Below are positions 1,675 through 60,323 of a stretch of 64,000 nucleotides of DNA, piece after piece. The stretch is taken from NCBI GenBank assembly GCA_015233495.1, contig JADFXQ010000002.1, positions 34,390 to 98,389 of the forward strand. The letters run 5' to 3'. Below the pieces are notes generated by a model. It had not been told where the DNA came from. It was given only the letters and a program-made list of their open reading frames with translations, and made no database searches. The position numbers and the translations under genes were made by a program. Position 1 is the stretch's first letter, and the number at the start of each line of letters is the position of its first letter. Source of the stretch: Candidatus Omnitrophota bacterium. GTDB lineage: Bacteria > Omnitrophota > Gorgyraeia > Zapsychrales > Zapsychraceae.

Positions 1675-2511
1675 ATGAAAAAAGCGGCAGTGTTAAAACG
1701 TTTTCAATTGGACGGCAAGGTCGTGGTCATCACGGGCGGAGCCGGACTTTTAGGAGTGCAACACGGACAAACAGTTCTGGAAGCGGGCGGGATTCCCTGG
1801 CTCTGGGATATTGATAATGAAAAATTGGATCAAGCGCAGGAAGAACTTTCCCAGCAATATCGCGCTCCGGTTTTTAGCAAAAAGGTAAATATCACGGACC
1901 GCGCGGATGTGCTTCTGGCCCGGAAAGATATAATGAGAAAATCCGGGCGGATTGATGTATTGATCAATAACGCGGCTAATAATCCGAAAATGACCGGTAA
2001 AGAGGACCCGGTCGGCTCGCGTTTGGAAAATTTTTCTTTGAATGCCTGGTCAGCGGATTTGGCAGTGGGATTGACCGGCGCTTTTATTTGTTCGCAAATT
2101 ATCGGCGCCGGTATGGCCGAAGCGGGCGGCGGGGTCATTTTAAATTTGGCATCGGATTTGGGGATTATCGCGCCGGATCAAAGAATTTATCGCCAGAAAG
2201 GGCTGGCCGAGCGCCGGCAACCCGTTAAACCAGTAACTTATTCCGTGGTGAAACATGGTTTGATCGGTTTAACGAAATATTGCGCCACCTACTGGGCGCA
2301 AAATAACCTGCGCGTGAATGCCATTTGCCCCGGTGGAGTAGAAAACAATCAAGGCAAAGAGTTCAGAGAAAATCTCTGCCGTTTGATCCCGCTGGGCCGG
2401 ATGGCGCGGCCGGATGAATATAAAGCGGCGGTTTTATTTTTAATTTCCGACGCCTCGTCCTATATGACGGGGGCGACGCTGATCATGGATGGGGGACGAA
2501 CATGCTGGTAA
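1675..2511 (+). CDS. SDR family NAD(P)-dependent oxidoreductase
   Basis: ITGGAGLLG glycine-rich motif, YSVVKHG (YxxxK), 278 aa. An RBS-like GAGGAGGG lies upstream. Confidence 0.65.
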   Translation: MKKAAVLKRFQLDGKVVVITGGAGLLGVQHGQTVLEAGGIPWLWDIDNEKLDQAQEELSQQYRAPVFSKKVNITDRADVLLARKDIMRKSGRIDVLINNAANNPKMTGKEDPVGSRLENFSLNAWSADLAVGLTGAFICSQIIGAGMAEAGGGVILNLASDLGIIAPDQRIYRQKGLAERRQPVKPVTYSVVKHGLIGLTKYCATYWAQNNLRVNAICPGGVENNQGKEFRENLCRLIPLGRMARPDEYKAAVLFLISDASSYMTGATLIMDGGRTCW

Positions 2512-4324
2512 TCAAGCCGGAGGCTGCCGGATGAGCGTGGTAATCAAAACAACCGCTTTAACCTGCGCGGCTGAAAAAGCTTCTGACTTAGTCTTGCTGG
2601 GGCCTTGGTGTTTATATCCCGGGGAGGAAACCCCGGCGGGAGCATGGGGGCAATCGCGGTTTCCGCTGTTTCCCACGCCCTGGTCGCGGCCCGACAGTGT
2701 CAAGGAGGCTTCGGCGTATTGCCAAAAAATTTATGATTTTGTATTGCCGCAACTCGCGGAAAATTTGAATCGGGTTTTAGGTTTTGACTGGAAGGTCAAA
2801 TCCTGGGAAATGTTGTTAGACAGCTGGTTATTGATTTTTATTCAAATTACCTACGAACGTTATGAACGTTTGCGCCAGGCCGTGGCCGCTTATCCGGACG
2901 CTTTGCTTTTCGTTTTGCCGGAGTCCCAATGCCGGTTGCAGAGTGAGACGACGCATGATTTTATCGCCCGGAAAAGCGAGGATGATTTTTTTAATTTATC
3001 GATCTATTCCGGCATTGCCTGGCATTTTTATCCTTCACGCGTTGCGGTTCAAAACGACTTCGGTCCGGGGCGGGACGCTCCAGCGAGGCAAAAACGCGGA
3101 GGAAAAGACCCCGCGATGGCCAAGCTGAAAACCGAAATCGGCAATCAGGCGCTGCAATTTTTGTTTCGTAAGGGAAAAAAAATAATCCTGCAGGATTTAT
3201 ATCATTTTCGTTTTCAGGATTTTTGGGCATTGCGCCGGGCTTTGCCCCGGGATACGATTCGGCTTTTGCCCGGCGGCCCGTCCGGTTCCGGTTTGGAAAC
3301 CCGGTATGACGCTTCACTGCGCCGGCAAATCTCTTTGACAGCCGGGTTTGACGATTTTTCGATTTGGTTGGCGGGGATATTGCCGCAAGCTGTGCCGTTG
3401 TCTTTGTTGGAAGCTTTGCCGCGCTACCGTCGGCAGACCAGGTCTTTATGGAGCCGGATTCCCGAACCGCAAGCTGTGATATCGGCGATCGGTTGGTACT
3501 ACAATGATTTTTTTAAATTTGCGGCGGCTGAGGCTTTACAGCGCGGGGCCAAAACTATTGAACTGCAGCACGGCAGCGGTTATGGTTGGTATGACACTTA
3601 TTTTCAAGAGAATCTGAGCCGGAACAAAGACGTTTTTTTTTCCTGGGGGGAAAAGGATGTCCCCCGGCGTGTGGTGCAGCCGTTTAGCAATCCGTATTTA
3701 GCCCGGTTGAAAGACGCGCATGACCCGCGGGAAGATCGTTTATTGTTTATTGGCACGCTGCCGTCGAAATATTACAACCGGTTTTCGAATTGGATCAATG
3801 TGGATTTTTTGGAGGATTATTTTCAACGGAAAAAACAATTTTTTTCCGCGTTGACTCCGCGGATACTCGGCAAAATGAGTTATAAATTTTATGAACTAAA
3901 ATGGGCCCAAGAAGTCAGCCGGATTAAAGCGGATTTTCCGCAAATACAAATAGCTCCGGCAAAGCCTAGCGCGGAGTTGATTCGCGCCTCGGTTTTAGTG
4001 GTCGTCGATAATGCCCAAACCGCTTTTATCGAGGCTTTGGTGATGAATGCTCCCTGTGTCGCTTTTTGGAACCCGCGGGTTTATGTGTTTCGGCCCGAGT
4101 CGCAAAAATATATGGACGCGCTGCTGGCCGCGGGCATTGTTTATCACGACGCGGCAAGCGCGGCGCGGCAGGTCAACGCGATTTATTCTGACCCTTCGGC
4201 CTGGTGGTCGCGTCCCGAGGTGCAGCAGGCCCGCCGGGATTTTTGTCAGCGTTTTGGTTTTTCAAAAAAGCATTGGACTGAAGATTGGCAGCGCCATTTT
4301 GGCCAGGGGAGCGCCTATGTGTGA
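2489..4324 (+). CDS. hypothetical large transferase-like protein (paralog family member 1)
   Basis: 611-aa ORF. Its C-terminal half shares the motif FSWG..(~25 aa)..NP..LLFIGT with the next gene and with the 18800 gene. No classical GT-A DXD motif was recognised. Confidence 0.45.
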   Translation: MGDEHAGNQAGGCRMSVVIKTTALTCAAEKASDLVLLGPWCLYPGEETPAGAWGQSRFPLFPTPWSRPDSVKEASAYCQKIYDFVLPQLAENLNRVLGFDWKVKSWEMLLDSWLLIFIQITYERYERLRQAVAAYPDALLFVLPESQCRLQSETTHDFIARKSEDDFFNLSIYSGIAWHFYPSRVAVQNDFGPGRDAPARQKRGGKDPAMAKLKTEIGNQALQFLFRKGKKIILQDLYHFRFQDFWALRRALPRDTIRLLPGGPSGSGLETRYDASLRRQISLTAGFDDFSIWLAGILPQAVPLSLLEALPRYRRQTRSLWSRIPEPQAVISAIGWYYNDFFKFAAAEALQRGAKTIELQHGSGYGWYDTYFQENLSRNKDVFFSWGEKDVPRRVVQPFSNPYLARLKDAHDPREDRLLFIGTLPSKYYNRFSNWINVDFLEDYFQRKKQFFSALTPRILGKMSYKFYELKWAQEVSRIKADFPQIQIAPAKPSAELIRASVLVVVDNAQTAFIEALVMNAPCVAFWNPRVYVFRPESQKYMDALLAAGIVYHDAASAARQVNAIYSDPSAWWSRPEVQQARRDFCQRFGFSKKHWTEDWQRHFGQGSAYV

Positions 4325-5666
4325 TGTGTTGGTGGTGATTGATAATCGTTTTCGGGAAATGGTTCCGAGTTTTTTGATCCGGCACTATCTGCGGCAACAA
4401 GGCTTAACTTGCGCTTTTTGCAGCCGGTTTAGTATGTGGGGCGCGTTTAACCGGTTACGGCCCCGCGCGGTCATTTTGCCCAATCCGGGAGAACCGTATA
4501 TCGCGGAATTGATTAAACGGGCTTTTGTGTTTATTCTGCCGAGCGAATCGGGCAACGGCCAGACCGGTTCGATTTTGGCTTTTTTTAAAGGCAACGTTCA
4601 TTATCAAACCTATAGTCAGCAGGCGGACCGCATTTTTTCTTGGGGGCCGCTGATGACGGATATTTTGCGGGATAACCATATCGCGGCAAAAGAAAAAATC
4701 ATCATGACCGGCAATCCGATTACGGATCAATGGTTTATCAAGCCGCGGCCGAAAAAAAATAAAATCTTGGGACTCACGACGACGTTTCGGGTGATCAACA
4801 GCAGTTTGGGTCCGGTGAAGAATATATTCCGCGCGATGCGCGAACATGAAAATGAAGGCGCCGGTGTTTATTTTATGCCGCCGCGGCATATGGAAACTTG
4901 GTTTTTTTATGAGCTGAGTTATGTGCGGCTTTTAGCCAATCTGATCGATCAGGTGGTTATCGGCCGCGACATCCATTTGGAGATCCGGCCGCATCCGTCG
5001 GAAAAGGCGGAGCAGTATGATTATTACCGGCAGGTCACCGGCGGCCGGTGCTGCGCCGTTAAGTCCGGGTCGATTGTGGAGTGGCTGCAAGGCATTGATG
5101 TTTTAGCGACGTATTTATCCACTTCTGCCATCGACGCGATCGTCCGCGGCATTCCGGTTGTCTCGTTTAAAAAATTATTGAACCCGGACGCCTTGGCTAT
5201 GATGCCGGCGCATTATGATTTGGATTATAACGGATGGCTTTGGCAGCCCGCGACCCTGGAAGAATTCACGGAAATGGTGGCTGCCGGGTTTGCGGGTAAA
5301 TTAGAGATCACGCCGTTTAAAACGCAGTTTTTAAAAAGCATTTTTGATAAATTTTATTTTCCGCGTCCCCGGTTAGCTTCCCAGAATATCGCCGAGGAAA
5401 TCGCGGTGTTTTTAGGCCGGGAAACGCCGCGGCCGTTTTCGTATCTTCCGGCGCGCAATCCGCAGGGGATAAAAAAAATCGCGCATCGGGTGCTGCCGCA
5501 TATCCCTTATTCGGAAAATGCGTATCTTTTGCTCTATTCTCTGCAAAATTTCTTGGAAAAAGATCCGATCAGCGGCGCAGTGGGTATTTCTTATTTTCCC
5601 TGGGCGTGGGAATCGTTATTAACCGCCGGGCGAACCTCCCGGCAGATCATTGAAGCGGCGGCCTGA
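4317..5666 (+). CDS. hypothetical transferase-like protein (paralog family member 2)
   Basis: The ATG at 4317 overlaps the upstream stop (ATGTGTGA). The ORF-track start at 4047 lies inside the previous gene in the same frame and is rejected. Shares the FSWG...NP...ILGLTTTF motif pattern with gene 2489-4324. Confidence 0.45.
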   Translation: MCDVLVVIDNRFREMVPSFLIRHYLRQQGLTCAFCSRFSMWGAFNRLRPRAVILPNPGEPYIAELIKRAFVFILPSESGNGQTGSILAFFKGNVHYQTYSQQADRIFSWGPLMTDILRDNHIAAKEKIIMTGNPITDQWFIKPRPKKNKILGLTTTFRVINSSLGPVKNIFRAMREHENEGAGVYFMPPRHMETWFFYELSYVRLLANLIDQVVIGRDIHLEIRPHPSEKAEQYDYYRQVTGGRCCAVKSGSIVEWLQGIDVLATYLSTSAIDAIVRGIPVVSFKKLLNPDALAMMPAHYDLDYNGWLWQPATLEEFTEMVAAGFAGKLEITPFKTQFLKSIFDKFYFPRPRLASQNIAEEIAVFLGRETPRPFSYLPARNPQGIKKIAHRVLPHIPYSENAYLLLYSLQNFLEKDPISGAVGISYFPWAWESLLTAGRTSRQIIEAAA

Positions 5667-5667
5667 C

Positions 5668-6651
5668 ATGAGCTACTCGCAAATCTTGAAAAATTTTCTC
5701 CCCATGGATCTGGCCCAAATGCGGCCGGCAGGGTTTTTAGAGCGGATGGAACGGGGTGGACGCGAAAAACAGCAAAAGATCATGGAAAAACACGGCTGGG
5801 AACCGGTTCGCCAATGTCCGGTGTGCGATTCGTCGCTATCCACAGTTGAACTGCGCAAATTCGACACCGAGATTTTGAATTGCGGGGATTGCTCGACGCG
5901 TTACGCGGCGCGCCGGCCGGTGGTTACGGAAGATATTTATTCCGATGATAGTTATATTCCGGTGATGATGGAAAATTATTTGCAAAACGCAGCCTACCGT
6001 AAAGCGCGTTTTGGCCCGGAACGCATCGCGTTGATTCAAAAATACCTGCGGCCCGGCGGCCGTCCGGCCTTGCTCGACGTGGGATGCGGCGTGGGATGGT
6101 TTTTAGAAGTAGCCCGGGAGCAGGGTTTTGAAATTTTCGGGCAGGAGGCGGGACGGGGTTTGGCGCGTTGGACCGGCGATCGCTTGGGCCGGGAAATTTA
6201 TACTCAGCCGCTGGCGGAATTGGCGCAAATCCAGCGGTTTGATGTAATCACCTTGTTTGATGTGCTGGAACACGTGCCTTTTCCCGCGCTTTTTGTTCAG
6301 GACGTGAAAGCCTGCCTGAAACCCGGAGGGATCGCGGTGTTTTTTACGCCGAACTTTGATTCCTTGGCGATCCGGGTCATGGCGGAGCGGTCGAATTTGA
6401 TCATTCCGGCGGAACATTTGACTTATTTCACGAAAAAGTCCGTGGAAACCTTGGCGGCTAAAACGCAATTGGAGTGGGTTGTTTATGAGACCTGCGGGAT
6501 TGATTTGGGGGATTTGAAAAGTTTTTACGAGTCGCAGAATCAGCAACCTTTAGCCGAGGCTTGCGCGGGTTTGTATAATTATTTGCAGCCGGTGATCGAT
6601 GCTGCGGAAGCGGGGAATCATATGCGGTTTGTTTTTCGACGGAAGGAGTGA
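5668..6651 (+). CDS. class I SAM-dependent methyltransferase with N-terminal zinc ribbon
   Basis: ATG at 5668 sits just after the upstream stop. CPVCDS...CGDC zinc ribbon, then the LLDVGCGVGWFLE SAM-binding motif I. Confidence 0.65.
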   Translation: MSYSQILKNFLPMDLAQMRPAGFLERMERGGREKQQKIMEKHGWEPVRQCPVCDSSLSTVELRKFDTEILNCGDCSTRYAARRPVVTEDIYSDDSYIPVMMENYLQNAAYRKARFGPERIALIQKYLRPGGRPALLDVGCGVGWFLEVAREQGFEIFGQEAGRGLARWTGDRLGREIYTQPLAELAQIQRFDVITLFDVLEHVPFPALFVQDVKACLKPGGIAVFFTPNFDSLAIRVMAERSNLIIPAEHLTYFTKKSVETLAAKTQLEWVVYETCGIDLGDLKSFYESQNQQPLAEACAGLYNYLQPVIDAAEAGNHMRFVFRRKE

Positions 6652-6655
6652 CAAA

Positions 6656-7357
6656 GTGGAGATCCTGGGTTTTATTCCCGCTCGGGCGGGATCAAAAGGC
6701 ATACCGAAAAAGAATCTCGCTTTGGTTAATTGCAAGCCATTGATCTCGTATACGATCGCGGCGGCGCAAGCCAGTTGCGTGACGCGGATTTTGGTGTCAA
6801 CGGATTCCGAAGAGATTGCCCAGGTTAGCCGCGCTTTGGGAGCGGATGTGCCATTTCTGCGCCCGGCGGCTTTGGCCGGGGATACTGCTTTGATTTCCGA
6901 TGCGATTTTAGACGCATTAGCGCGGTTGCGGGAAAAAGAAAATTACGCGCCGGAGGTGATCGTTCTGTTACAGCCGACCTCGCCTTTACGGCAGGCGCGC
7001 TACATCGATGCCGCAGTGGAGCTGTTTTTAAAAAATGATGTGGATTCCGTGATCAGTATTTCCGACCCGATTGAGCATCCGGCGCTCATGGTATATTGGC
7101 CGCAGCCTACGGCCATGACTTTTCTGATGGAGGGTAAATACGCGACTATGCCGCGGCAAGCTTATCCGGCGTGTTCGAAAATCAACGGGATGCTTTATGT
7201 CTTTTCGCCGAAGACGTTGGCAGTCTATAATAATATTTTCGGCAAAAAAGTTTTGCCGTATCAAACACCCCAGGCGGATTCCATTGATATTGATTCGCCG
7301 GGGGAGATGGAAATCGCCGCGGCCCTGATCCAGTATCGGCAACGGCAAATAACCTGA
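6656..7357 (+). CDS. acylneuraminate (nonulosonic acid) cytidylyltransferase, NeuA/LegF/PseF family
   Basis: GTG at 6656 lies 7 nt after AAGGAG. The N-terminus ILGFIPARAGSKGIPKKNL is typical of the CMP-NeuAc/CMP-Kdo synthetase family. Confidence 0.7.
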   Translation: MEILGFIPARAGSKGIPKKNLALVNCKPLISYTIAAAQASCVTRILVSTDSEEIAQVSRALGADVPFLRPAALAGDTALISDAILDALARLREKENYAPEVIVLLQPTSPLRQARYIDAAVELFLKNDVDSVISISDPIEHPALMVYWPQPTAMTFLMEGKYATMPRQAYPACSKINGMLYVFSPKTLAVYNNIFGKKVLPYQTPQADSIDIDSPGEMEIAAALIQYRQRQIT

Positions 7358-7367
7358 AAGGACAGTC

Positions 7368-8342
7368 ATGCGAGTTTTGATTACCGGGGGGGCCGGGTTT
7401 GTCGGCTCAACGATGACAAAACATTTTTTAGCGGCCGGGTGGGACGTGAATGTTTTGGATGAACTTTGGTTTGATCCGGGCGTGCCGGATTTGTTTCGCG
7501 ACAATCCGCGCTATCGGTTTATCCGGGGCAGTATTTTGGACCCGGCTGCTTTAAAAAAGAGTCTGGAGTCTGTGGATTTTGTCGTGCACGCGGCCGCAGT
7601 CGTCGGGGAGCCGGCCAGCAAAAAATTTCCGGATTTGACGCAAAAAGTCAATTATGAGGGATCGCGGCAGCTGATTCAATCTTTAGCGGGGTCTCCGGTG
7701 AAAGGGATGGTTTTTTTATCCACTTGTTCGAATTATGGCATTGCCGACGGAGTAGCGAATGAAAACACGGCCTTGATGCCTTTGTCTGTCTATTCGGACA
7801 CCAAAATTAAAATTGAGCGTTATCTCATGGATGAGGCGAAACAAGTGAATTGGGTGATTTGCCGTTTGTCCACGGTTTATGGGATGTCCCCGCGGATGCG
7901 TTTTGATCTCACGGTCAATGATTTTACGGCTAACGCTTTTCGCGACGGAGCTTTAAGCATTTTTCTTCCGCATACTTTTCGCCCCTATATCCACGTGCAG
8001 GATGTCGCGCGCGTCATCGGGGCGATTATCCGCGATTTTGACCGCGTGAAAAATAATGTTTTTAACGTCGGATTTTCCGGCGAAAATTATCAAAAAATTA
8101 AAATCGCGGAAATTGTAAAACAGCTTCTCCCGGGCTTGAAACTCGATATAGTAACTACCGGCACGGACACCCGGGATTATCAGGTTGATTTTTCCAAATT
8201 GCAGCAGACTTTGGATGTTCCGCGCCGCTGGGATGTGCGCAGCGGAGCGCAGGAGATTTTAGAGGTTTTGCGCCGGGGCGAGATTGCCGATAGCCAGGCC
8301 GCCAAATATTATAATACGAATCCGGTTTTGTCCCCGGCATAG
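7368..8342 (+). CDS. NAD-dependent epimerase/dehydratase (nucleotide-sugar 4,6-dehydratase-like)
   Basis: N-terminal TGGAGFVGS Rossmann motif, extended SDR fold, 324 aa. Its position within the nonulosonic acid cluster fits a LegB/PseB-like role (inference). Confidence 0.7.
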   Translation: MRVLITGGAGFVGSTMTKHFLAAGWDVNVLDELWFDPGVPDLFRDNPRYRFIRGSILDPAALKKSLESVDFVVHAAAVVGEPASKKFPDLTQKVNYEGSRQLIQSLAGSPVKGMVFLSTCSNYGIADGVANENTALMPLSVYSDTKIKIERYLMDEAKQVNWVICRLSTVYGMSPRMRFDLTVNDFTANAFRDGALSIFLPHTFRPYIHVQDVARVIGAIIRDFDRVKNNVFNVGFSGENYQKIKIAEIVKQLLPGLKLDIVTTGTDTRDYQVDFSKLQQTLDVPRRWDVRSGAQEILEVLRRGEIADSQAAKYYNTNPVLSPA

Positions 8343-8355
8343 GAGGAAGCGACCC

Positions 8356-9447
8356 ATGGAATTAGACGCGCCGAATGTCGGGGAAATTGAGAAACAGCGC
8401 TTGCAAAAAGTAATCGAGAGTTCTTTTATCTCAACCTATGGCCCTCAAGTCGGCGAATTTGAAAATCAAATGGCCGCCTTTCTGGGCGCGAATTATGCCG
8501 CGGCCGTGCAAAGCGGCACTGCCGCGATCCACATGGCCTTGCATGAATTGGGTATCGGTCCCGGGGATGAGGTCATTGTGCCGGTTTTGACGTTTGTGGC
8601 TACGGTGAATCCGGTCAAATATGTCGGCGCCACGCCGGTTTTTGTGGATGTGGATCCCTCCGCGTGGACAATGGACCCGCGTAAAGTTGAAGCGGCGATT
8701 ACCCCGCGAACGAAAGCGATCATAGTCGTGCATCTCTACGGCAATCCCGGCGCCCTGCCGGAATTGCGCGCGGCGGCTAAGAAATATCGGTTGGCGGTTA
8801 TTGAAGACGCGACCGAGAGTTTGGGCGCGACATATCAGGGGCAGCATACGGGGACCTGGGGAGATTTTGGCTGTTTGAGTTTTAACGGCAATAAGACGAT
8901 CACCACCGGCGGCGGCGGGATGATCATTGGCCAAGCGGAAGACCGGATCAAGCACATCCGGTTTCTGGTCAATCAGGGCCGGGACGAGCAACGCGGCTAT
9001 TTTCATCCGGAAATGGGGTTTAATTATCGGATGACCAATTTGGAAGCGGCGTTAGGATTGGCGCAAATGGAACGTCTGCCGTATTTTTTGCAAGTCAAAG
9101 AGCGGTTTCATGCTATCTATACGGCGGAGCTGGGCAATTGCTGCCGTATCCATTTTCAACAGGAATTGCCGCAAGCTAAGAGTTCGTGGTGGTTTAACTG
9201 CGTGGGGTTGGATCCGGACTGCGACATTAGCGCGCTGCAAAAGAGTCTCAAAGACCGGGGGATCCCGACGCGGCGTTTTTTTATGCCCTTGGTGGAGTTT
9301 CCGATGTACCAAGGGACAGGGAACAATCGGGAGCTTTATCCCAACGCGTACGCCATTTACGAAAAAGGTTTGTGTCTGCCAAGCTCGACGATAAATTCCG
9401 AGGAAGATATCCGGGCGGTCTGCCGGGCTTTGCGGGAGTGCGCATGA
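8356..9447 (+). CDS. DegT/DnrJ/EryC1/StrS family PLP-dependent sugar aminotransferase
   Basis: ATG at 8356 lies 9 nt after AGGAGG. Characteristic segments ATESLGA, GDFGCLSFNGNKTITTGGGG and FNYRMTNLEAALG. Confidence 0.75.
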   Translation: MELDAPNVGEIEKQRLQKVIESSFISTYGPQVGEFENQMAAFLGANYAAAVQSGTAAIHMALHELGIGPGDEVIVPVLTFVATVNPVKYVGATPVFVDVDPSAWTMDPRKVEAAITPRTKAIIVVHLYGNPGALPELRAAAKKYRLAVIEDATESLGATYQGQHTGTWGDFGCLSFNGNKTITTGGGGMIIGQAEDRIKHIRFLVNQGRDEQRGYFHPEMGFNYRMTNLEAALGLAQMERLPYFLQVKERFHAIYTAELGNCCRIHFQQELPQAKSSWWFNCVGLDPDCDISALQKSLKDRGIPTRRFFMPLVEFPMYQGTGNNRELYPNAYAIYEKGLCLPSSTINSEEDIRAVCRALRECA

Positions 9448-9788
9448 AAAAGCAGCTCATTTTAATCGGCGGGGGAGGGCATTGCCGGTCTTGTATGGAT
9501 GTTATCCGCGCGGAAGGCCGGTTTGCGATTGCCGGGATTGTGGACCCGAATATCCCGGCAGGCGCTAAAGTGCTGGAAGCAGTTTGCCTGGGGTCGGACG
9601 CGGACCTGCCGGTTTTGGCAAAAAAATACGCCTATGTTTTGCTAACGATAGGACACCCGCTTTGGCCCGATACCCGGATTAAAATTTTTCAACAATTGCG
9701 CGACTTGGGTGCGCAGGCCACCGTAACTTCGTCTTTAACCCGCTCGGGGATTTATATCGGAACCCCGGCCAGAATAATGAAAAAATGA
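9444..9788 (+). CDS. NeuD/PglD-like N-terminal domain protein (truncated sugar N-acyltransferase)
   Basis: MKKQLILIGGGGHCRSCMDVI matches the N-terminal Rossmann-like domain of the NeuD/PglD family. Only ~114 aa are present and the C-terminal left-handed beta-helix (hexapeptide) domain is absent. ATGA overlap with the upstream gene, and the stop overlaps the neuB-like start. Confidence 0.45.
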   Translation: MKKQLILIGGGGHCRSCMDVIRAEGRFAIAGIVDPNIPAGAKVLEAVCLGSDADLPVLAKKYAYVLLTIGHPLWPDTRIKIFQQLRDLGAQATVTSSLTRSGIYIGTPARIMKK

Positions 9789-10792
9789 AGAAAAAAATTT
9801 ATATCATTGCGGAAGCCGGGGTGAATCACAACGGGAATATGGATATCGCCCGCAAAATGATTGATGCGGCAGCCGCGGCGCAAGCCGACGCGGTAAAATT
9901 TCAAACCTTTCGCGCCGTGAATCTGCTTTGCCCGTCCGCTCCGAAAGCGGCTTACCAGATGCAGACAACCCATCCGGAGGAATCACAATGGGACATGATC
10001 AAGGCCTTGGAACTTTTGCCGAGCGATCACCCAATATTATTGCAGCATTGCCGCGCGGCCGGCATTACGTTTCTTTCTTCGCCGTTTGATTTGCCCAGCA
10101 TCGCGTTGTTAGCGGGACTCGGGCTGGATATTTATAAGATTCCTTCGGGTGAAATTACTAATTTGCCGTATTTACGGCAAGTGGGTCAGCTGGGGAAACG
10201 GGTGATTTTATCCACGGGCATGGCCACGCTCGCGGAAACAGCGGCAGCCATCGACGTTTTGACCCAAGCCGGGACAAAGCGGGACGATATCACCGCGCTG
10301 CACTGCACGACAGAATACCCGACGCCGTATGGTCAAGTCAATTTAAAAGCGATGCTTACGCTCAAAGAAAAATTGGGCGTGGCGGTGGGGTATTCCGATC
10401 ACACGCTGGGGATTGAGGTGGCAGTGGCGGCCGCGGCCCTCGGCGCTACGGTGATTGAAAAACATTTTACCCTAGATCGGACCATGCCGGGACCGGATCA
10501 TCCGGCTTCATTGGAACCGCAGGATTTGCGGCGTTTGGTGGAAGCGGTCCGCAATATTGAACTCAGTTTGGGCGATGGGATAAAACGGATGTCCGCGGTA
10601 GAGGAAAAAAATGTGACCGTGGTCCGCAAAAGCATTGTCGCCGCGCAAAAAATTATCCGGGGCGAGGTGTTTACCGCCGAAAATTTAACGACGAAACGGC
10701 CGGGAACCGGGTTAAATCCGATGCGCTGGGATCAGGTGATCGGCCGGACGGCGAAACGCGATTTTCAACCGGATGAATTGATCGAATTATGA
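9785..10792 (+). CDS. N-acylneuraminate-9-phosphate/nonulosonic acid synthase (NeuB/LegI/PseI family)
   Basis: AEAGVNHNGNMDIARKMIDAAAAAQADAVKFQTF is the NeuB-family N-terminal signature. A C-terminal SAF-like segment is present. 335 aa. Confidence 0.8.
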   Translation: MKKKIYIIAEAGVNHNGNMDIARKMIDAAAAAQADAVKFQTFRAVNLLCPSAPKAAYQMQTTHPEESQWDMIKALELLPSDHPILLQHCRAAGITFLSSPFDLPSIALLAGLGLDIYKIPSGEITNLPYLRQVGQLGKRVILSTGMATLAETAAAIDVLTQAGTKRDDITALHCTTEYPTPYGQVNLKAMLTLKEKLGVAVGYSDHTLGIEVAVAAAALGATVIEKHFTLDRTMPGPDHPASLEPQDLRRLVEAVRNIELSLGDGIKRMSAVEEKNVTVVRKSIVAAQKIIRGEVFTAENLTTKRPGTGLNPMRWDQVIGRTAKRDFQPDELIEL

Positions 10793-11673
10793 GAATTCTT
10801 TTTATCGGAAACGTCATTTTTAGCCGGAAGACTTTGGAAAAACTTTTGCGGTTGGGCGCGGATGTCGTGGGGGTTGTGACGAAAAAGTCTGCGGCGTTTA
10901 ACGCGGATTTTTGTGATTTGGGGGATGTCGCCGCCGTACACGGTTTGCCGCTGTTCTATGCCGAAGATTTCAATGCCGGGTCTACGGAAGAATGGATACG
11001 GCAGCAAAAACCGGAGGTGATTTTTTGTTTCGGCGTTTCCCAGCTTTTGCGGACTAATTTATTAACTGCGGCGCCTTTGGGAGTCATCGGCTATCATCCG
11101 GCGCTTTTACCCGCGAATCGGGGCCGCCATCCGCTGATTTGGGCGTTGGCTTTGGGACTGCCGCGCACGGGCTCAACTTTTTTTTTCATGGACGAAAAAG
11201 CGGACAGCGGCGATATCCTTGACCAGGAAATTGTGCCGATTGCGTATGAAGATGACGCCGGGACTTTGTACGCCAAGATAACGCAGACGGCGCTGGGACA
11301 GATCGAACGATTTTTGCCAAAGCTGGCTTCGGGGAATTTCCCGCGTTTACCGCAAGACCGGGCAGAGTCAAATGTTTGGCGTAAACGCGGCCGGGACGAC
11401 GGGAAGATCGTTTTTTCCGCTGGTTCGCGCGCAATTTATAATTTGACGCGCGCTTTGACCCGGCCTTATGTTGGCGCGCATGTTCTTTATCGGCAAGCCG
11501 AATTTAAAGTTTGGCAGACGCGGGAGTTGTCAGCCGGAGGAGCTAACGATGAGTTCGGCAAAATTTTAGCGGTGCGCGGCACGGAGATCGTTGTGCGTTG
11601 TCACGACGGAGCAGTGGGGTTGTTGGAACACGAGTTGTCAACTTTACCGAAACCAGGAGAATATTTCTTATGA
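10789..11673 (+). CDS. formyltransferase family protein (sugar N-formyltransferase-like)
   Basis: Fmt/ArnA-N-like fold: MRILFIGNV N-terminus and HPALLPANRGRHPLIWA, with the catalytic HxSLLPxxRG-type motif present as HPALLPANRG. 294 aa with a C-terminal extension. Confidence 0.65.
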   Translation: MRILFIGNVIFSRKTLEKLLRLGADVVGVVTKKSAAFNADFCDLGDVAAVHGLPLFYAEDFNAGSTEEWIRQQKPEVIFCFGVSQLLRTNLLTAAPLGVIGYHPALLPANRGRHPLIWALALGLPRTGSTFFFMDEKADSGDILDQEIVPIAYEDDAGTLYAKITQTALGQIERFLPKLASGNFPRLPQDRAESNVWRKRGRDDGKIVFSAGSRAIYNLTRALTRPYVGAHVLYRQAEFKVWQTRELSAGGANDEFGKILAVRGTEIVVRCHDGAVGLLEHELSTLPKPGEYFL

Positions 11674-12338
11674 AAAAAGTCCTTGTTGTCGCGGTGCATC
11701 CGGATGACGAAACTTTGGGGTGCGGGGGCACGCTGCTGCGGCACAAAGCTGCCGGGGACGCGGCAGCGTGGCTGATCGTGACCAGCGCTTTGACTGAGCA
11801 AGGATATGCTTCCGCAGAGGTTGACCGGCGCGCCCGGGAAATCGCCGCGGTCGGGCAAGAATATGGTTTTTCGTTGACCGAACAGTTGGGGTATCCAACC
11901 AAAAAATTGCGCACAGTGGGGGAGCATGAATTGATCGACCGGTTTTCGCGGATTCTGAAACAATGGGAGCCGCAGATAGTTTATCTTCCTTTTGCTCAAG
12001 ATGTGCATGGGGACCACCGGGTGGCTTTTACGACGATGTTTAGCGCCTTAAAATCTTTTCGGGCGCCTTTTGTGGAAAAGGTTTACATGATGGAAACCAT
12101 CAGTGAAACCGAGTTTGCCCCGGCATTACCCGGCAAGGGTTTCACGCCGAATGTTTTTGTGGATATCAGCGCTGTGTTGGATTCGAAAATGCGGATCATG
12201 AATTTATATTCCGCTGAGATGGGGGCGCATCCCTTTCCGCGCAGTGTGGAGCATATCCGGGCGCTTGCTTTACACCGCGGGGCTACCTGCGGTCGGACTT
12301 TCGCGGAAGCATTTATGTTACTAAAGGAAATATGGTGA
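11670..12338 (+). CDS. PIG-L/LmbE family deacetylase
   Basis: VAVHPDDETLGCGGTL is the LmbE-like zinc-dependent de-N-acetylase signature. ATGA-type overlap with the upstream gene. Confidence 0.7.
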   Translation: MKKVLVVAVHPDDETLGCGGTLLRHKAAGDAAAWLIVTSALTEQGYASAEVDRRAREIAAVGQEYGFSLTEQLGYPTKKLRTVGEHELIDRFSRILKQWEPQIVYLPFAQDVHGDHRVAFTTMFSALKSFRAPFVEKVYMMETISETEFAPALPGKGFTPNVFVDISAVLDSKMRIMNLYSAEMGAHPFPRSVEHIRALALHRGATCGRTFAEAFMLLKEIW

Positions 12339-13507
12339 AAAGAAAAATTTGTGTCTTTACGGGATCGCGGGCGGAATACGGATTGCTGTTCCCTTTATTG
12401 AACCTCTTGCGCGGCGACCAGGATTTTGTTTTGCAATTGATGGTATCGGGGATGCACGTAGCGGCGCAGTTTGGCGACACTTACCGGGCGATCGCCGCTG
12501 ACGGGTTTCCGATTCGCGCGAAAATCGACATTGAACTTTGCTCGGATACTCCGCCGGGTATTTGCCGCTCCATCGGTTTGGGCGTCGAACGGTATGCCGC
12601 GGCTTTGGCGCGGCTGCGGCCGGAAGTGATCGTGATTTTGGGCGATCGGTTTGAGGCGTTTGCCGCGGCTACCGCCGCCATGGTGGCCCGGATCCCTATC
12701 GCGCATATTCATGGCGGGGAAGCGACCTGGGGTTCGATCGACGAACCTATGCGCCACGCGATAACTAAAATGAGCGCGCTGCATTTTACTTCCACGGAAG
12801 AATATCGCCGTCGGGTGATTCAATTGGGAGAAAGACCCGGCACCGTATTTAACGTCGGAGCTTTGGGAATTGACAACATTCGGTCGATGGATTTGTTGTC
12901 CAAAGAGGATTTCGCGAAAATGCTGGGCGTGGGTTGGCGCGACAAAAATCTTTTGGTCACTTTTCATCCGGTCACTTTAGAAAAGGGCCAAGCGGCCTCT
13001 CAGATCGGGGAGTTGCTGGCGGCTTTGGAATCTTTTCCGGATATTTTCGTGATTTTCACCAAAGCCAACGCGGATACGGAAGGACAGGTTATCAATCAAA
13101 GGATTGCGGTTTACGCGCGGCGGCATCGGGACCGTTGTGCGGTGTTTGCGTCTTTGGGCCAGCGCAATTATTTGTCTGCTTTGCGGCAGGTCGACGGGGT
13201 GGTAGGCAATTCATCGAGCGGGATCATTGAAGCGCCCAGTTTTCAGATCGGGACGATCAATATCGGCGATCGTCAGCAAGGCCGCGTGCAAGCCCGCAGC
13301 GTAATCAATTGCCCGCCGCGTCGGGAGTCGATAGTCAAGGCTTTGCGGAAACTGTACACCCGAAAATTTCAAGCGGAATTGAAGTCGGTAACCAATCCCT
13401 ATGACCGCGGCGGGCCGGCCCGTCAAATCTGGGCGGTGTTGCGCCGGGTCCGGGAATTCAATCTGAAAAAAGTTTTCTATGATCTGCCAAATCGGGGGGA
13501 ACAATGA
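12332..13507 (+). CDS. UDP/GDP-N-acetylglucosamine 2-epimerase (hydrolysing), NeuC/LegG family
   Basis: KICVFTGSRAEYGLL N-terminus and an IAHIHGGE motif. 391 aa, matching the hydrolysing 2-epimerase family used in Neu/Leg pathways. Confidence 0.75.
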   Translation: MVKRKICVFTGSRAEYGLLFPLLNLLRGDQDFVLQLMVSGMHVAAQFGDTYRAIAADGFPIRAKIDIELCSDTPPGICRSIGLGVERYAAALARLRPEVIVILGDRFEAFAAATAAMVARIPIAHIHGGEATWGSIDEPMRHAITKMSALHFTSTEEYRRRVIQLGERPGTVFNVGALGIDNIRSMDLLSKEDFAKMLGVGWRDKNLLVTFHPVTLEKGQAASQIGELLAALESFPDIFVIFTKANADTEGQVINQRIAVYARRHRDRCAVFASLGQRNYLSALRQVDGVVGNSSSGIIEAPSFQIGTINIGDRQQGRVQARSVINCPPRRESIVKALRKLYTRKFQAELKSVTNPYDRGGPARQIWAVLRRVREFNLKKVFYDLPNRGEQ

Positions 13508-14562
13508 TCAGTGATATTTTTATTCCCAAAAATATGATTTTAAAACAGGCCATGCGGCAAATGGACAAAGGCGGACAGCGCATCCTTTTTGTTGTCGACG
13601 GACAGGGCCGGCTGATCGGCTCTTTGTCCGATGGGGATATCCGCCGGGGGATCATCAAGAACCACGACCTGAATGATTCGATCGCGACAGTCTATAATTC
13701 GCGGCCGTTTTTTTCCGCCCAGCCTTATGATTTGGAAAAGGTCAAAGCGGCGATGGTGACAATGAAAATTGAGCGGGTCCCGGTAATCGACGAGCACCGC
13801 CGCATCGTTGCCGTATTGAAATGGGAAGATTTGTTTGGCGGAAACCGGCCGGTAAAAGATAAACTCTCGATACCGGTAATGATCATGGCCGGTGGGAAAG
13901 GGACCCGTTTAGACCCGGTCACCCGGATTCTCCCCAAACCTTTGGTGCCGATCGGCGAGCGCAGCATTATCGACATTATTATTGATAAATTTACCGAATA
14001 CGGCATGGAAGAATTTTATATCTCGATCCAGCATAAAGCCAAATTGATCAAGGCTTTTTTTGAAGAAAAAGACGTTGCTTATAAAGTGCATTTCATTGAA
14101 GAACAAAAACCTTTAGGCACTGCCGGAAGTTTGCGGCTGCTTTTAGGCCGGATCCGCGACCGGGTGTGGGTTTCCAACTGTGATATCATTATCGACGGCA
14201 ATTACGCGGAGATCGCCGACTTTCATTTAAAAGGCGGCTATGACCTGACGATTGTCGGTTCGTTTCGGCATTTTACCGTGCCTTACGGCATCTGCCGGAT
14301 TGCCGACGGCGGTGAACTGGAAGATATGATCGAAAAACCCGAATATGATTTTCTGGTGAACACTGGCATGGTGCTGGTGGAAAAGCGCGCTTTACGTCTG
14401 ATCCCCGCGAATCGGGAGTTCCATATACCGGATTTGATCGCCAAGATCAAGAAAAAGGGCGGCAAAGTCGGCGTGTTTCCGGTGAATGAGAAATCCTGGA
14501 TCGATATCGGTGAATGGGAAAAGTATAAACAGACCATGGAAGATTTTGAAAAAAAGATTTGA
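13504..14562 (+). CDS. CBS-domain sugar-phosphate nucleotidyltransferase (PtmE-like)
   Basis: N-terminal CBS pair followed by the MAGGKGTRLDPVTRILPKPLVPI nucleotidyltransferase signature. The architecture matches the Campylobacter PtmE-type GlcN-1-P guanylyltransferase of the legionaminic pathway. Confidence 0.7.
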   Translation: MISDIFIPKNMILKQAMRQMDKGGQRILFVVDGQGRLIGSLSDGDIRRGIIKNHDLNDSIATVYNSRPFFSAQPYDLEKVKAAMVTMKIERVPVIDEHRRIVAVLKWEDLFGGNRPVKDKLSIPVMIMAGGKGTRLDPVTRILPKPLVPIGERSIIDIIIDKFTEYGMEEFYISIQHKAKLIKAFFEEKDVAYKVHFIEEQKPLGTAGSLRLLLGRIRDRVWVSNCDIIIDGNYAEIADFHLKGGYDLTIVGSFRHFTVPYGICRIADGGELEDMIEKPEYDFLVNTGMVLVEKRALRLIPANREFHIPDLIAKIKKKGGKVGVFPVNEKSWIDIGEWEKYKQTMEDFEKKI

Positions 14563-14602: not shown

Positions 14603-16324
14603 TTGAACAATTTACGCAAACTGTTTCACGCTACCCGGGACCTTTTTCAGCGTTATCCCGGGCATACGGTCCGATTTTTGCTCGGGAATATTCTGGCTTC
14701 CTGTTCGCAGATCGTTTCGATCGGCAGTTTATATCCCATCATTTACGTGATCCTGAACAAAAATGTCGGGAACGACAAGGTCGGACGGTTATTCAACACG
14801 GTTTTCGCCGCCCTCCACTGGGAGCCGAATTTGCTGAATTATTTGCTGCTCTTCACCGGGGTCAGTTTCGTGTCTACCGTGGTTTTTATTGCCGTGGAAG
14901 TCGATCAAAATCGTTTTTTGCGCCGATTGGAATATGACACCCGCAGCGAGCTCACCGCGAAAGTTTTGGGATCGGCCTGGTCATTTTTGCGGACTTTAAA
15001 CCACGGTCGTTTTGTCAATGTGGTGATGCGCGACGTGGAAAGTTATAAATTAGTGGTTAAATATATTTTTCTGGCCTTGGCTTCGTTTATCCAATTTGGT
15101 TTTTTTTCCGGGGCATTGTTTTATTTGAACGTGGGGTTTGCCGGCCTGAGTTTTCTTTTGATGGCCGGGGCTTATTGTTTTATTGTTCCGGTAATCAAAC
15201 AGGCGAATCACCTGGGTCACGCGACGACCCGGGCTTACGCGCGGCAAAATCATTTTTTAATCAGCGGCGCGAAAGGGTTTAAGGAAATCAAGGCCGGGGC
15301 TTTGGAAACTTATTTTATGAAATCCGTGCGGCCGATTTTTGAAAACGTCGCGGATCTTTATTTTCGCGGCATGACTTTGACTGCCGTGCAGGTGCGGCTG
15401 GGCGAATTTTTGGGATATTTGGTTATCGCGATTTTGTTGTTTGTCAGCATGACCTGGTTGGCGATGAACGTCAATGTGCTGTTTATCGCCTTGGTGGTAA
15501 TTTCTCGGATCGTTCCGATGCTGCGCGCTGGGATTCAAAACGTGCATATCGCGTACAGCAATCTGCCTTCTATGGACCGGATGTTGGAATTATCTCAAGA
15601 ATGCCTCCCGGAGCAAACCCGCAGCCGGGCGCTTGCCAAACCTCTGGAAGCCATCGTTTGGAAAGACGTCGGATTTTCTTACGACGGCCGGCAGTGGTTG
15701 TTCCGCCATTTGGATTGTGTTTTCCGTAAAGGAGATTTTTGGGTCATCACCGGAGAAACCGGCAGCGGGAAATCCACAGTGCTGGATTTGCTCAGCGGCA
15801 TTGTCGAAACTACTGAGGGCCGGGTAGAGTGCGATCAGATCGGCCTTAAAGAGATCCAACGCGCTTCTTTACAAAAACGCATCGCTTATTTAACCCAAGG
15901 AGCTTTTATTTTTGAAGGCACGATTTTAGAAAATATCACCTGGGGACATCCGGTTGTCGATCCCGTTCAATTGCGTGACGTGATCCAACGGGCGCAATTG
16001 GACTCGGTTGTGGCGGATAAATCATTGGATTTTCCGGTCACCGAAGGCGGATCCAATTTGTCCGGAGGCCAACAGCAGCGCATCATGATTGGCCGCACGC
16101 TTTTGAAAAATTGCGATTTCATCTTGATGGATGAACCCAGTTCGGCGTTGGATGAGGCGACCGCGAATAACCTGATGACAGCGCTGCTGCCGTTGAAAGG
16201 CCGGGTTGGTCTCATTATGGTCACACATCGCGGCGAGTTTGCGCGGCACGCGGATTATGTTTTTGCTTTTTCCGGCCAGGGAGTTAAAATCACCGCCAAC
16301 TCGGCCGCGGTTGGTCCGGGATAA
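14603..16324 (+). CDS. ABC transporter permease/ATP-binding protein (fused exporter)
   Basis: TTG start after GAGGGAG. N-terminal TM region, then Walker A GETGSGKST, ABC signature LSGGQQQRI and Walker B ILMDEPSSALD. Confidence 0.75.
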   Translation: MNNLRKLFHATRDLFQRYPGHTVRFLLGNILASCSQIVSIGSLYPIIYVILNKNVGNDKVGRLFNTVFAALHWEPNLLNYLLLFTGVSFVSTVVFIAVEVDQNRFLRRLEYDTRSELTAKVLGSAWSFLRTLNHGRFVNVVMRDVESYKLVVKYIFLALASFIQFGFFSGALFYLNVGFAGLSFLLMAGAYCFIVPVIKQANHLGHATTRAYARQNHFLISGAKGFKEIKAGALETYFMKSVRPIFENVADLYFRGMTLTAVQVRLGEFLGYLVIAILLFVSMTWLAMNVNVLFIALVVISRIVPMLRAGIQNVHIAYSNLPSMDRMLELSQECLPEQTRSRALAKPLEAIVWKDVGFSYDGRQWLFRHLDCVFRKGDFWVITGETGSGKSTVLDLLSGIVETTEGRVECDQIGLKEIQRASLQKRIAYLTQGAFIFEGTILENITWGHPVVDPVQLRDVIQRAQLDSVVADKSLDFPVTEGGSNLSGGQQQRIMIGRTLLKNCDFILMDEPSSALDEATANNLMTALLPLKGRVGLIMVTHRGEFARHADYVFAFSGQGVKITANSAAVGPG

Positions 16325-32494: not shown

Positions 32495-33127
32495 ATGTCG
32501 TTATGGGTGAAGGGCATCCGTTATTTCAACAGTGAGATATCTTGCCGGTGGACCGTGCGTTTTTGGTCTTTTTGGATGCAGATCAAGGCTGCAATGTTGG
32601 GCGTCCCGATCGGACCGGGAGTTCGTTGTTACGGAAACGTTCATCTGATGCCGGGGGTGAACAGTTCCCTTTCAATCGGACGCGATGTGATTTTCGTGTC
32701 GGACACTCGACGATGCACCGCGTCTTCGATTTTTGCGCCGGTTAAGTTAAGGACTTTTGAGCGTACCGCGCGCATCACAATCGGCGACAAAGTCGGATTA
32801 AACGGCACATCGATTGTCTGCCGATCCAAGACAGTCGCGATTGGCGAAGGCGCGGTGATCGGCCCCAATGTTGTGATCTCGGATTCTGATTTTCACCAGG
32901 TGGCGCTTTCAGCGGATCATTATAATGACCCGGGCATGGAGTATGACCGCGATGTCTTAATCGGCAAAAATGTTTGGATCGGTATGCGGGTCATGGTGCT
33001 GAAAGGCGTGACCATTGGCGACGGAGCAATCATCGGGGCCGGGAGCGTGGTAGTGCAGGACATTCCTTCCGGGGTCGTAGCCGCAGGTAACCCGGCAAAA
33101 GTCATAAAATCATTAAATAAGGAGTGA
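32495..33127 (+). CDS. hexapeptide-repeat sugar O-acetyltransferase
   Basis: Left-handed beta-helix repeats ([32 protein letters not shown]). Preceded by a ~190-bp AT-rich intergenic region. Confidence 0.7.
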
Positions 33128-56775: not shown

Positions 56776-56811
56776 CAAATTTAAGATTAACTCAAGAGAG
56801 TTGAGGTAAAA

Positions 56812-59285: not shown

Positions 59286-60323
<1,038 letters not shown>

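Follow-up and report, generated by a model that had tools for sequence, protein, structure and literature searches.

Which sugar is made by an operon that sets a formyltransferase (FT) and an LmbE-type deacetylase among the genes of a legionaminic acid pathway? This question is raised by positions 6656–14562 (+ strand) of a 64-kb stretch of DNA from a Candidatus Omnitrophota bacterium (contig JADFXQ010000002.1), referred to here as the window. Nonulosonic acids occupy the ends of bacterial surface glycans and influence how the surface is charged, bound by phages and recognized by the immune system. A first-pass annotation had read the operon as a GDP-linked, legionaminic-type (Leg-type) pathway with all enzymes present and two extra genes in its middle. 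Our analysis leads to a more specific reading, to which we assign a probability of about 0.55, namely that its product is a legionaminic-type 5,7-diamino nonulosonic acid, CMP-activated, bearing unusual N-substituents (5-formamido-7-amino) and destined for a surface glycan.

Organization of the operon

The operon contains nine open reading frames (ORFs; Table 1). Eight had been named in the first-pass annotation; all are real ORFs in which profile searches find the stated domains, and the boundaries given for the FT (10789–11673) and LmbE (11670–12338) were exact. The claim that the pathway enzymes are all present holds for these eight ORFs and fails for two canonical steps: LegH/PglD is a stub, and the short-chain dehydrogenase/reductase (SDR) at the LegB position is not LegB. 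The stub corresponds to the ninth ORF (9444–9788), which lies between the aminotransferase and synthase genes and had been overlooked. Translational coupling, also claimed earlier, is borne out. When the junction with the upstream methyltransferase gene is included, start and stop codons overlap at six of nine junctions. Five of these are ATGA-type 4-nt overlaps (at 9444, 9785, 10789, 11670 and 13504) and one is a 7-nt overlap (at 12332, between LmbE and the 2-epimerase). The remaining three junctions have gaps of 4–13 nt, with Shine-Dalgarno-like sequences before the next start.

FT and LmbE form a conserved pair in Leg-type clusters

The FT falls into a tight subfamily (∼293 amino acids (aa), ∼55% mutual identity) that spans many phyla and was found in at least 400 species when one genome per species was scanned. 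From the best 80 of 400 confirmed relatives, plus four loci from an exact protein look-up and minus one duplicate, we compiled a set of 83 loci (cited below by L numbers), in which neighboring genes were detected by tblastn with the window proteins as probes. The best 80 include Omnitrophota, Planctomycetota, Campylobacter concisus, Sulfurimonas, Flavobacteriia, Pelagibacteraceae, SAR116, Leptospira and Brevibacillus gelatini; the looked-up loci add Desulfurobacterium crinifex and Leptospira ryugenii.

In 79 of the 83 loci, the gene immediately downstream of FT, in the same direction, is LmbE. Co-occurrence was counted in the 57 loci that are flanked by 4 kb or more of sequence on both sides. 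LmbE is present in all 57, a NeuC/LegG-like epimerase in 56, and NeuB, a LegC-like aminotransferase and a PtmE-like nucleotidyltransferase in 54 each, the last mostly straight after LmbE. The commonest gene order is LegC-(PglD)-NeuB-NeuC-FT-LmbE-PtmE-NeuA. Given these near-constant neighbors, FT-LmbE is an accessory dedicated to Leg-type clusters. What had looked like a peculiar local insertion is instead a fixed two-gene module shared by many such clusters.

The relationship of the module to the acetyltransferase PglD is informative. Intact PglD is found in 42 of 53 well-flanked loci, and the 11 other FT-LmbE loci without PglD are scattered over the FT tree rather than forming a clade of their own. 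These data argue against the FT being the usual stand-in for PglD. Because the two enzymes so often coexist, the FT would be expected to act on an amine other than that of PglD, and it more likely acts on the one exposed by LmbE, in what would amount to an acetyl-to-formyl exchange. The substrates of LmbE-family enzymes are 2-acetamido sugars, and the 2-position of the hexose becomes N5 of the nonulosonic acid. The window LmbE matches TT1542 (67.8 bits), with the metal/base motifs VHPDDE and HGDH aligned, and hence carries both the H-P-D-D and the H-x-D-H signatures.

Other features of these related loci deserve mention. A WbuX-type amidotransferase and HisH/HisF-like genes, the acetamidino-forming set, accompany FT-LmbE in L003/L005, L001, L008, L011, L015 and L082, indicating that several N-acyl remodeling systems coexist in a cluster. 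In L003/L005, genes for PHP, ATP-grasp and methyltransferase proteins lie between legC and neuB. The Planctomycetota locus L004 contains two NeuB paralogs (1483–2487 and 6360–7424), the second of which precedes genes for a cytidylyltransferase and a sulfotransferase-like protein.

The acetyltransferase gene is a remnant

The ninth ORF matches TIGR03570 over profile positions 1–85 of 202 only, with 48 bits against a cutoff of 160.8, and aligns with residues 2–114 of the intact 210–215-aa PglD proteins encoded at the same operon position in L002 and L004. About 40 homologs were recovered from the database, all of 191–200 aa and with a Hexapep domain apart from one short exception. This exception, P0270, was set aside as a frameshift artefact, its long-read contig being ridden with frameshifts. 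In the window, no leftover DNA separates the remnant from neuB, and start/stop coupling is exact across the deletion. The tail of the remnant, GIYIGTPARIMKK, resembles the C-terminus of L002-type PglD, a hint of internal in-frame deletion, but against the closest homologs it fits the start of the left-handed β-helix (LbH) domain equally well (15.1 versus 15.2). By internal deletion or 3′ truncation alike, the hexapeptide-repeat (LbH) catalytic domain is lost, and LegH/PglD is here, judging from these alignments, a catalytically dead stub.

No substitute N-acetyltransferase was found in the 64-kb window. The only other hexapeptide protein there (32495–33127) is a WbbJ/LacA-type O-acetyltransferase and hence no PglD substitute. 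A GNAT protein (24685–25782) was likewise rejected, as it is FemAB-like (Acetyltransf_6) and has no NCBIfam match. With the catalytic domain lost and no substitute in the window, the 4-amino group made by LegC, the future N7, is predicted to stay free.

The FT active site looks rewired

The first-pass annotation had linked the FT to an N-formylated sugar, and structural comparison agrees with an enzyme of the sugar type. An AlphaFold2 (AF2) model of the protein (predicted local distance difference test score (pLDDT) 93.9) has the ArnA formyltransferase domain as its best Foldseek match (template modeling (TM) score 0.90–0.92), with Fmt close behind. At the sequence level, the ArnA domain scores 121 bits, the best Fmt 90 and PseJ, a solved structure that bears the name of a Pse-pathway formyltransferase, 36. 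The score against the fmt model TIGR00460 is 109.7 bits, below the cutoff of 201.5, compared to 165–182 bits for ArnA-type models.

Sugar N-formyltransferases have an Asn-His-Asp triad; the FT has their fold and departs from them at the Asn position. The catalytic Asn of N-x-H is an invariant Gly (G-x-H) in 120 of the 120 closest homologs. Residues G101, H103, N110, H114 and D139 are all invariant in this set, and His103 and Asp139 are the equivalents of the catalytic His and Asp. The family motif is G-[FY]-H-P-A-x-L-P-x-N-R-G-R-H-P, in which a loop Asn and His replace the Tyr and Ala of ArnA. The active site of the family thus looks rewired, and the literature that we searched holds no description of such an arrangement.

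An unusual SDR occupies the LegB position

The label '4,6-dehydratase', which the SDR had received earlier, has to be withdrawn, as the protein is not of the LegB type. It scores 57.7 bits against the LegB model TIGR04180 (cutoff 475), while the LegB of L002 scores 511. Its best PDB match by far is Cj1427 (6VO6/6VO8, taken as Cj1427 from the Foldseek entry titles), with 190 bits and ∼35% identity, the next best reaching at most 75 bits. An AF2 model (pLDDT 91.2) gives the same picture, with a Foldseek E value of 2.6e-33 to Cj1427 (TM 0.87/0.91) and 5e-24 for the next entry. The active-site stretch S-T-C-S-N-Y-G is invariant in 120 of 120 homologs and compares to S-T-S-E-V-Y-G in LegB and N-T-N-S-G-Y-G in Cj1427, such that the dehydratase Glu of S-T-[SD]-E is Ser in both the window SDR family and Cj1427. 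These two also have in common the motif SPRMRxDLxVNDF, which canonical LegB lacks. Cj1427 is a GDP-heptose C4-dehydrogenase with ping-pong kinetics, in which bound NADH is recycled by alpha-ketoglutarate.

The same SDR type heads the otherwise canonical Leg-like operons L085 and L086. It also heads an SDR-DegT-Bac_transf set in L087, which is typical of the use of 4-amino-4,6-dideoxy-N-acetylhexosamine (HexNAc). Moreover, LegC orthologs that are ∼60% identical pair with either SDR type. These observations suggest that the SDR most likely does the work of LegB, its invariant Cys possibly serving as the C5 base. By family it would oxidize C4, with GDP-HexNAc as the predicted substrate. Since the protein scores outside the LegB family and lacks the dehydratase Glu, the 9-deoxygenation implied by the name 'legionaminic' is something that we infer rather than read from the enzyme.

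The aminotransferase and the 2-epimerase point to a Leg-type pathway

The aminotransferase scores just under the cutoff of 420 for the LegC model TIGR04181 (382.6 bits; PseC 258), and the L002 LegC is above it (429.8). The window protein is 55–61% identical to the LegC of related loci with canonical LegB. As a member of this family, it would put in the 4-amino group that ends up as N7 in the finished product. Compared to the solved GDP/UDP-diNAcBac 2-epimerase of A. baumannii (LegG; PDB 5ZLR/5XVS), the 2-epimerase reaches 309 bits, versus 138 bits for the epimerase domain of human GNE, and so is by sequence LegG-like rather than NeuC/GNE-like, with a predicted substrate. Together with the LegC-family aminotransferase, this sustains the earlier assignment to a 5,7-diamino (legionaminic-type) rather than a classical sialic-acid pathway. 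Of the outcomes named beforehand as grounds for rejecting that assignment, a synthase and an epimerase both firmly in the classical NeuB/NeuC clades and an FT grouping with Fmt, neither was observed.

The synthase passes the NeuB_NnaB model, scores below cutoff against the PseI model (281 bits; cutoff 340) and is about equally distant from the PseI (176 bits) and NeuB (165 bits) structures in the PDB; neither the PDB nor NCBIfam holds a LegI reference. The cytidylyltransferase, preceded by a Shine-Dalgarno-like sequence at its GTG start, scores 121.9 bits against the PseF model TIGR03584, below the 205.7 cutoff. Best NCBIfam matches of the CBS-domain nucleotidyltransferase, all sub-threshold, include mannose-1-phosphate guanylyltransferase (81.6 bits) and HddC (68.4 bits), which makes it a probable guanylyltransferase. 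As first stated, however, the GDP-linked route goes beyond its basis, which consists of domain architecture and these weak guanylyltransferase-like matches.

A proposed pathway and its alternatives

We propose the following route. The CBS-nucleotidyltransferase, from its architecture, would supply GDP-linked hexosamine, N-acetylated or not (GDP-HexN(Ac)). The SDR would oxidize C4, as expected from its family, and probably also strip the 6-OH; the LegC-family enzyme would then transaminate C4. With the acetyltransferase lost, the resulting amine (N7 of the product) would stay free. LmbE would take the GlcNAc-derived acetyl group off the 2-amino position (N5 of the product), and the FT would re-acylate the same amine with a formyl group from N10-formyl-tetrahydrofolate. 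We infer this exchange from the strict pairing of FT and LmbE in ∼80 loci, most of them with intact PglD. The LegG-like enzyme would release and 2-epimerize the sugar, the NeuB/LegI-type synthase would condense it with phosphoenolpyruvate (PEP), and the cytidylyltransferase would activate it. The predicted product is CMP-5-formamido-7-amino-3,5,7,9-tetradeoxynonulosonic acid, of which the free sugar (C10H18N2O7, 278.11 Da) would be zwitterionic. It may be further methylated.

A sugar of this composition has been reported. In Candidatus Kuenenia stuttgartiensis, a CMP-nonulosonic acid C10H18N2O7 that bears a single formyl group and a single free amine was measured, along with its methylated counterpart, and assigned to the cluster KSMBR1_RS09820-09860 (2026 SugarBase preprint, doi 10.64898/2026.04.20.719630). 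The product class suggested by the first-pass annotation, N-formylated and/or de-N-acetylated, thus has a match in the product of an analogous cluster.

A number of points count against our assignment. With Gly at the catalytic Asn position, formyl transfer by the FT is plausible rather than certain, and the functions of the FT and LmbE subfamilies are likewise predictions. In the SDR, the Glu that serves 4,6-dehydratases as a base is missing. An acetyltransferase encoded outside the window could still acetylate N7. Finally, the Kuenenia genes, compared by name alone, are arranged deacetylase-WbqC-FT and not FT-LmbE, and the authors of that study label their FT 'legH/fmt', which implies a formyl group at N7 and a free N5.

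This last point leads to the main rival reading, rather unlikely in our estimation, in which the FT replaces the lost PglD/LegH and formylates the 4-amine made by LegC, while LmbE strips the 2-N-acetyl group. The product, 5-amino-7-formamido, would likewise have a mass of 278.11 Da. The acetyltransferase is indeed lost in the window, and ArnA, the closest solved FT, formylates a 4-amino NDP-sugar. VioF and PseJ also act on NDP-4-amino sugars, the amine formylated by PseJ becoming N7, and no characterized sugar N-formyltransferase is known to act anywhere but on a C3 or C4 amine of an NDP-sugar. In addition, formylation would drive an unfavorable transamination, as it reportedly does in the Arn pathway. 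Yet FT and PglD would compete in the 42 of 53 loci where intact PglD stands beside FT-LmbE, loci negative for PglD form no separate FT clade, and the adjacency of FT and LmbE in 79 of 83 loci better fits consecutive action at one site. PseJ, which acts at the future N7, is moreover only a distant match of the FT (36 bits). For these reasons we prefer formylation at N5. A separate issue, compatible with either regiochemistry, is whether the SDR is a C4-dehydrogenase of the Cj1427 type, its bound NADH re-oxidized by alpha-ketoglutarate regenerated by LegC. The 6-OH would then be kept, giving a product with a 9-OH, a 5,7-diamino-3,5,7-trideoxynonulosonic acid (7-amino-neuraminic type; ∼294.11 Da with one formyl group). 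We regard this as unlikely, even though Cj1427 is the nearest structure by far, shares the SPRMRxDLxVNDF motif and the Ser in place of the dehydratase Glu, and follows a ping-pong mechanism with alpha-ketoglutarate. The invariant C-S-N, compared to N-S-G in Cj1427, hints at an additional reaction, in which Cys might for instance serve as the C5 base. The presence of the same SDR at the head of L085 and L086 and of the set in L087 speaks against it too, and LegC orthologs of ∼60% identity that work with either SDR type suggest functional equivalence. A literature search for natural 9-hydroxy 5,7-diamino nonulosonic acids gave nothing relevant. Less probable again is the full combination, in which SDR and LegC aminate C4 of GDP-GlcNAc with retention of the 6-OH to give an undescribed 9-OH class of nonulosonic acid, N5-formylated here by the Asn-less FT. 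If true, 5,7-diamino-3,5,7-trideoxy sugars would also be the products of the many Leg-like operons with this SDR family at their head.

Two further readings can be given little weight. One holds that the pathway is decaying and makes no finished sugar, with FT and LmbE as inherited baggage. The PglD remnant is unique among the ∼40 homologs recovered, and gene loss is common in metagenome-assembled genomes of Omnitrophota with small genomes. However, none of the other eight ORFs is shortened and their catalytic motifs are intact, start/stop coupling has survived the deletion exactly, eleven further FT-LmbE loci do without PglD, and Kuenenia makes its free-amine sugar without legH; we therefore hold decay to be very improbable. 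The other reading, a classical N-acetylneuraminic acid (Neu5Ac) operon of NeuC, NeuB and NeuA with an unrelated tRNA-type formyltransferase, draws on the NCBIfam names 'N-acetylneuraminate synthase' and 'UDP-GlcNAc 2-epimerase NeuC', both matched above cutoff. These two models also cover Leg enzymes, however, and the epimerase is much closer to LegG (309 bits) than to GNE (138 bits). Moreover, the SDR and LegC genes are coupled into the operon, and the FT is below the fmt cutoff and nearer to ArnA, in a pair that occurs essentially only in aminotransferase-containing clusters. A classical sialic-acid pathway, for which we see almost no chance, is effectively refuted by the coupled SDR and LegC genes, the LegG-like epimerase and an FT that is not Fmt.

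Genomic setting

Table 1. Coordinates of the operon genes and of flanking features in the window.
Feature	Coordinates	Strand	Basis and remarks
PtmA-like short-chain dehydrogenase	1675..2511	+	adh_short_C2; NF050062 FlagModPtmA 112 bits vs cutoff 350; weak assignment
LIC12162-family transferase	2489..4324	+	TIGR04331 333.4 bits vs cutoff 225; no Pfam match
BFO_1060-like glycosyltransferase, surface-carbohydrate biosynthesis protein	4047..5666	+	TIGR04396 77 bits, NF046086 52 bits, both under cutoff; no Pfam match
S-adenosylmethionine (SAM)-dependent methyltransferase	5650..6651	+	Methyltransf_23 81.9 bits; 4-nt gap to cytidylyltransferase
CMP-nonulosonic acid synthetase-like cytidylyltransferase (LegF/NeuA/PseF family)	6656..7357	+	PF02348 (CTP_transf_3) 73.5 bits; GTG start
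Extended SDR, Cj1427 family, at LegB position	7368..8342	+	Cj1427 best PDB match; TIGR04180 far below cutoff
LegC-family pyridoxal phosphate (PLP) aminotransferase (DegT)	8356..9447	+	PF01041 366 bits; TIGR04181 382.6 bits
PglD/NeuD/LegH N-acetyltransferase remnant, 114 aa, locus tag HQL23_01055	9444..9788	+	PF17836 PglD_N only
NeuB/LegI-type nonulosonic acid synthase (PEP condensation)	9785..10792	+	PF03102 + SAF; TIGR03569 474.7 bits vs cutoff 399.65
Two-domain ArnA/Fmt-fold N-formyltransferase, distinct subfamily	10789..11673	+	PF00551 (Formyl_trans_N) + PF02911 (Formyl_trans_C)
LmbE/PIG-L zinc-dependent de-N-acetylase, coupled to FT	11670..12338	+	PF02585 74 bits; activity predicted
LegG-type hydrolysing NDP-sugar 2-epimerase	12332..13507	+	TIGR03568 458 bits vs cutoff 235.9
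CBS-domain sugar-1-phosphate nucleotidyltransferase, PtmE-like architecture	13504..14562	+	CBS + NTP_transferase
ABC exporter, MsbA/PglK-like	14603..16324	+	ABC_tran + ABC_membrane; PglK model 134 bits, sub-threshold; 40 nt past operon

The FT, the SDR and the PglD remnant each match, at 100% identity, proteins from a Candidatus Omnitrophica metagenome-assembled genome, encoded on a 111-kb contig. The operon lies within a co-directional run of ∼20 genes on the + strand (3–20788), itself part of a larger surface-glycan island. This island encodes glycosyltransferases, Wzy_C, PMT_2-type GT-C enzymes, an ABC exporter, GDP-mannose 4,6-dehydratase (GMD) together with an Fcl-like gene, and a polyprenyl-phosphate sugar phosphotransferase. 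Nearly all genes of the window are on the + strand, and GC skew is positive throughout. No flagellar genes were found within the 64 kb, nor were tRNA genes or Rfam families at gathering threshold, and a scan for promoters and terminators gave counts near those of shuffled controls.

Upstream of the operon, the PtmA-like dehydrogenase is 36% identical to the SDR at the PtmA position of L003 and is possibly a precursor-supply enzyme, in keeping with its weak assignment. The LIC12162-family protein is a candidate glycan or nonulosonic-acid transferase. For the BFO_1060-like protein, a candidate nonulosonic-acid transferase, the profile matches start at residue 95, and the true start of the ORF is probably near 4320. 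Downstream, the ABC transporter is a probable exporter of the glycan or of a lipid-linked sugar. It is followed by genes for a B12-binding radical SAM enzyme (16357–17886, +) and a methyltransferase (17844–18803, +). B12-radical SAM genes recur in the related nonulosonic-acid loci L001, L085 and L086, which suggests a common sugar modification. The run ends with a large protein (18800–20788, +) that has no Pfam match and a match below cutoff to the TIGR04326 'surface carbohydrate' family, a further candidate nonulosonic-acid transferase.

Farther downstream, GC content is 0.415–0.47 between 28000 and 40000, compared to 0.50–0.53 elsewhere. Genes of this stretch encode a Wzy_C polymerase/ligase, the WbbJ/LacA-type hexapeptide O-acetyltransferase (32495–33127) and a PMT_2 protein, and two of its ORFs (29557–30555 and 30607–32307) have no family match. 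This part of the island may be variable and horizontally acquired. A 4224-aa ORF (37874–50548, +) sits mid-island and combines an AAA_5 (MoxR/dynein-type) ATPase, further P-loop matches, a transglutaminase core and a C-terminal VWA domain; over 42–46 kb, GC skew climbs to ∼0.30 and GC drops to ∼0.45. A second sugar module (54525–60316) encodes a WecG/TagA transferase, the polyprenyl-phosphate sugar phosphotransferase, an AglJ-like GT2 glycosyltransferase, GDP-mannose 4,6-dehydratase (545 bits) and an Fcl-like GDP-6-deoxyhexose synthase (301 bits, under cutoff).

Significance and comparison with known systems

Our comparative results are of broader interest than the window itself, which is a good but not exceptional example. 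FT-LmbE emerges as a standard accessory of Leg-type clusters in hundreds of species, including Pelagibacteraceae, SAR116, Campylobacter concisus, Flavobacteriia, Leptospira and Omnitrophota. The pair is a concrete genetic candidate for the synthesis of 5-N-formyl legionaminic acid, by deacetylation and then formylation. A sugar bearing a formamido group and a free amine would be zwitterionic and not acidic. The analysis also draws attention to two enzyme families, formyltransferases with Gly for the catalytic Asn and Cj1427-like SDRs in place of LegB. The gene set is widespread and partly characterized, and the locus is a useful example of it, not a new kind of system.

The GDP route to CMP-legionaminic acid in Campylobacter jejuni, reportedly established by Schoenhofen and colleagues in 2009, uses LegB, C, H, G, I and F together with PtmE, F and A. 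The window has in common with it a LegC-family aminotransferase, a LegG-like epimerase, a NeuB/LegI-type synthase, a CTP_transf_3 protein, a CBS-nucleotidyltransferase of PtmE architecture and, upstream, a PtmA-like SDR. It differs in having an SDR that is not LegB, a 114-aa LegH/PglD stub, and FT and LmbE in addition; no PtmF (GFO/IDH/MocA) gene is found in the window. C. jejuni PtmG/PtmH and the WbuX/HisH/HisF-type amidotransferases, which convert N5-acetamido to acetamidino groups, are likewise N-acyl remodelers encoded among leg genes. They differ from FT-LmbE in chemistry and family, and none is present in the window, although WbuX-type genes co-occur with FT-LmbE in several of the related loci.

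Among formyltransferases, ArnA of E. coli and Salmonella (UDP-L-Ara4N formylation) resembles the FT in its two-domain fold (TM ∼0.9), catalytic His and Asp, amino-sugar substrate and a pathway with a DegT-type aminotransferase. In the FT, by contrast, the equivalent of Asn102 is Gly and the loop reads LPxNRGRHP instead of LPKYRGRAP. The FT also stands alone, and its partner is the LmbE deacetylase rather than the ArnD deformylase. Cj1427 is to the SDR what ArnA is to the FT: the closest structure and sequence, with the shared SPRMRxDLxVNDF motif and no dehydratase Glu. It acts on a GDP-sugar, and GDP-HexNAc is the predicted substrate of the window SDR. The differences are C-S-N versus N-S-G and a role as the first step of an aminotransferase-coupled nonulosonic pathway, not in heptose epimerization.

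Two systems come close to the predicted product. The steps of the legionaminic pathway are summarized in PMC6137143, which also describes 5-N-formyl-legionaminic acid in Halorubrum sp. PV6, with a predicted FT gene (HrrPV6_1050) between legG and neuD. This sugar shares with the one predicted here the N-formylation of a Leg derivative at position 5. The context is archaeal N-glycosylation, a NeuD homolog is present, and PMC6137143 mentions no deacetylase. The Kuenenia cluster, to judge by its gene annotation, is alike in carrying a PIG-L deacetylase and an FT inside a Leg-like cluster for which no legH is listed. It differs from the window in a gene annotated as canonical LegB and in a last gene annotated as 'nucleotidase', not as a NeuC-type epimerase.

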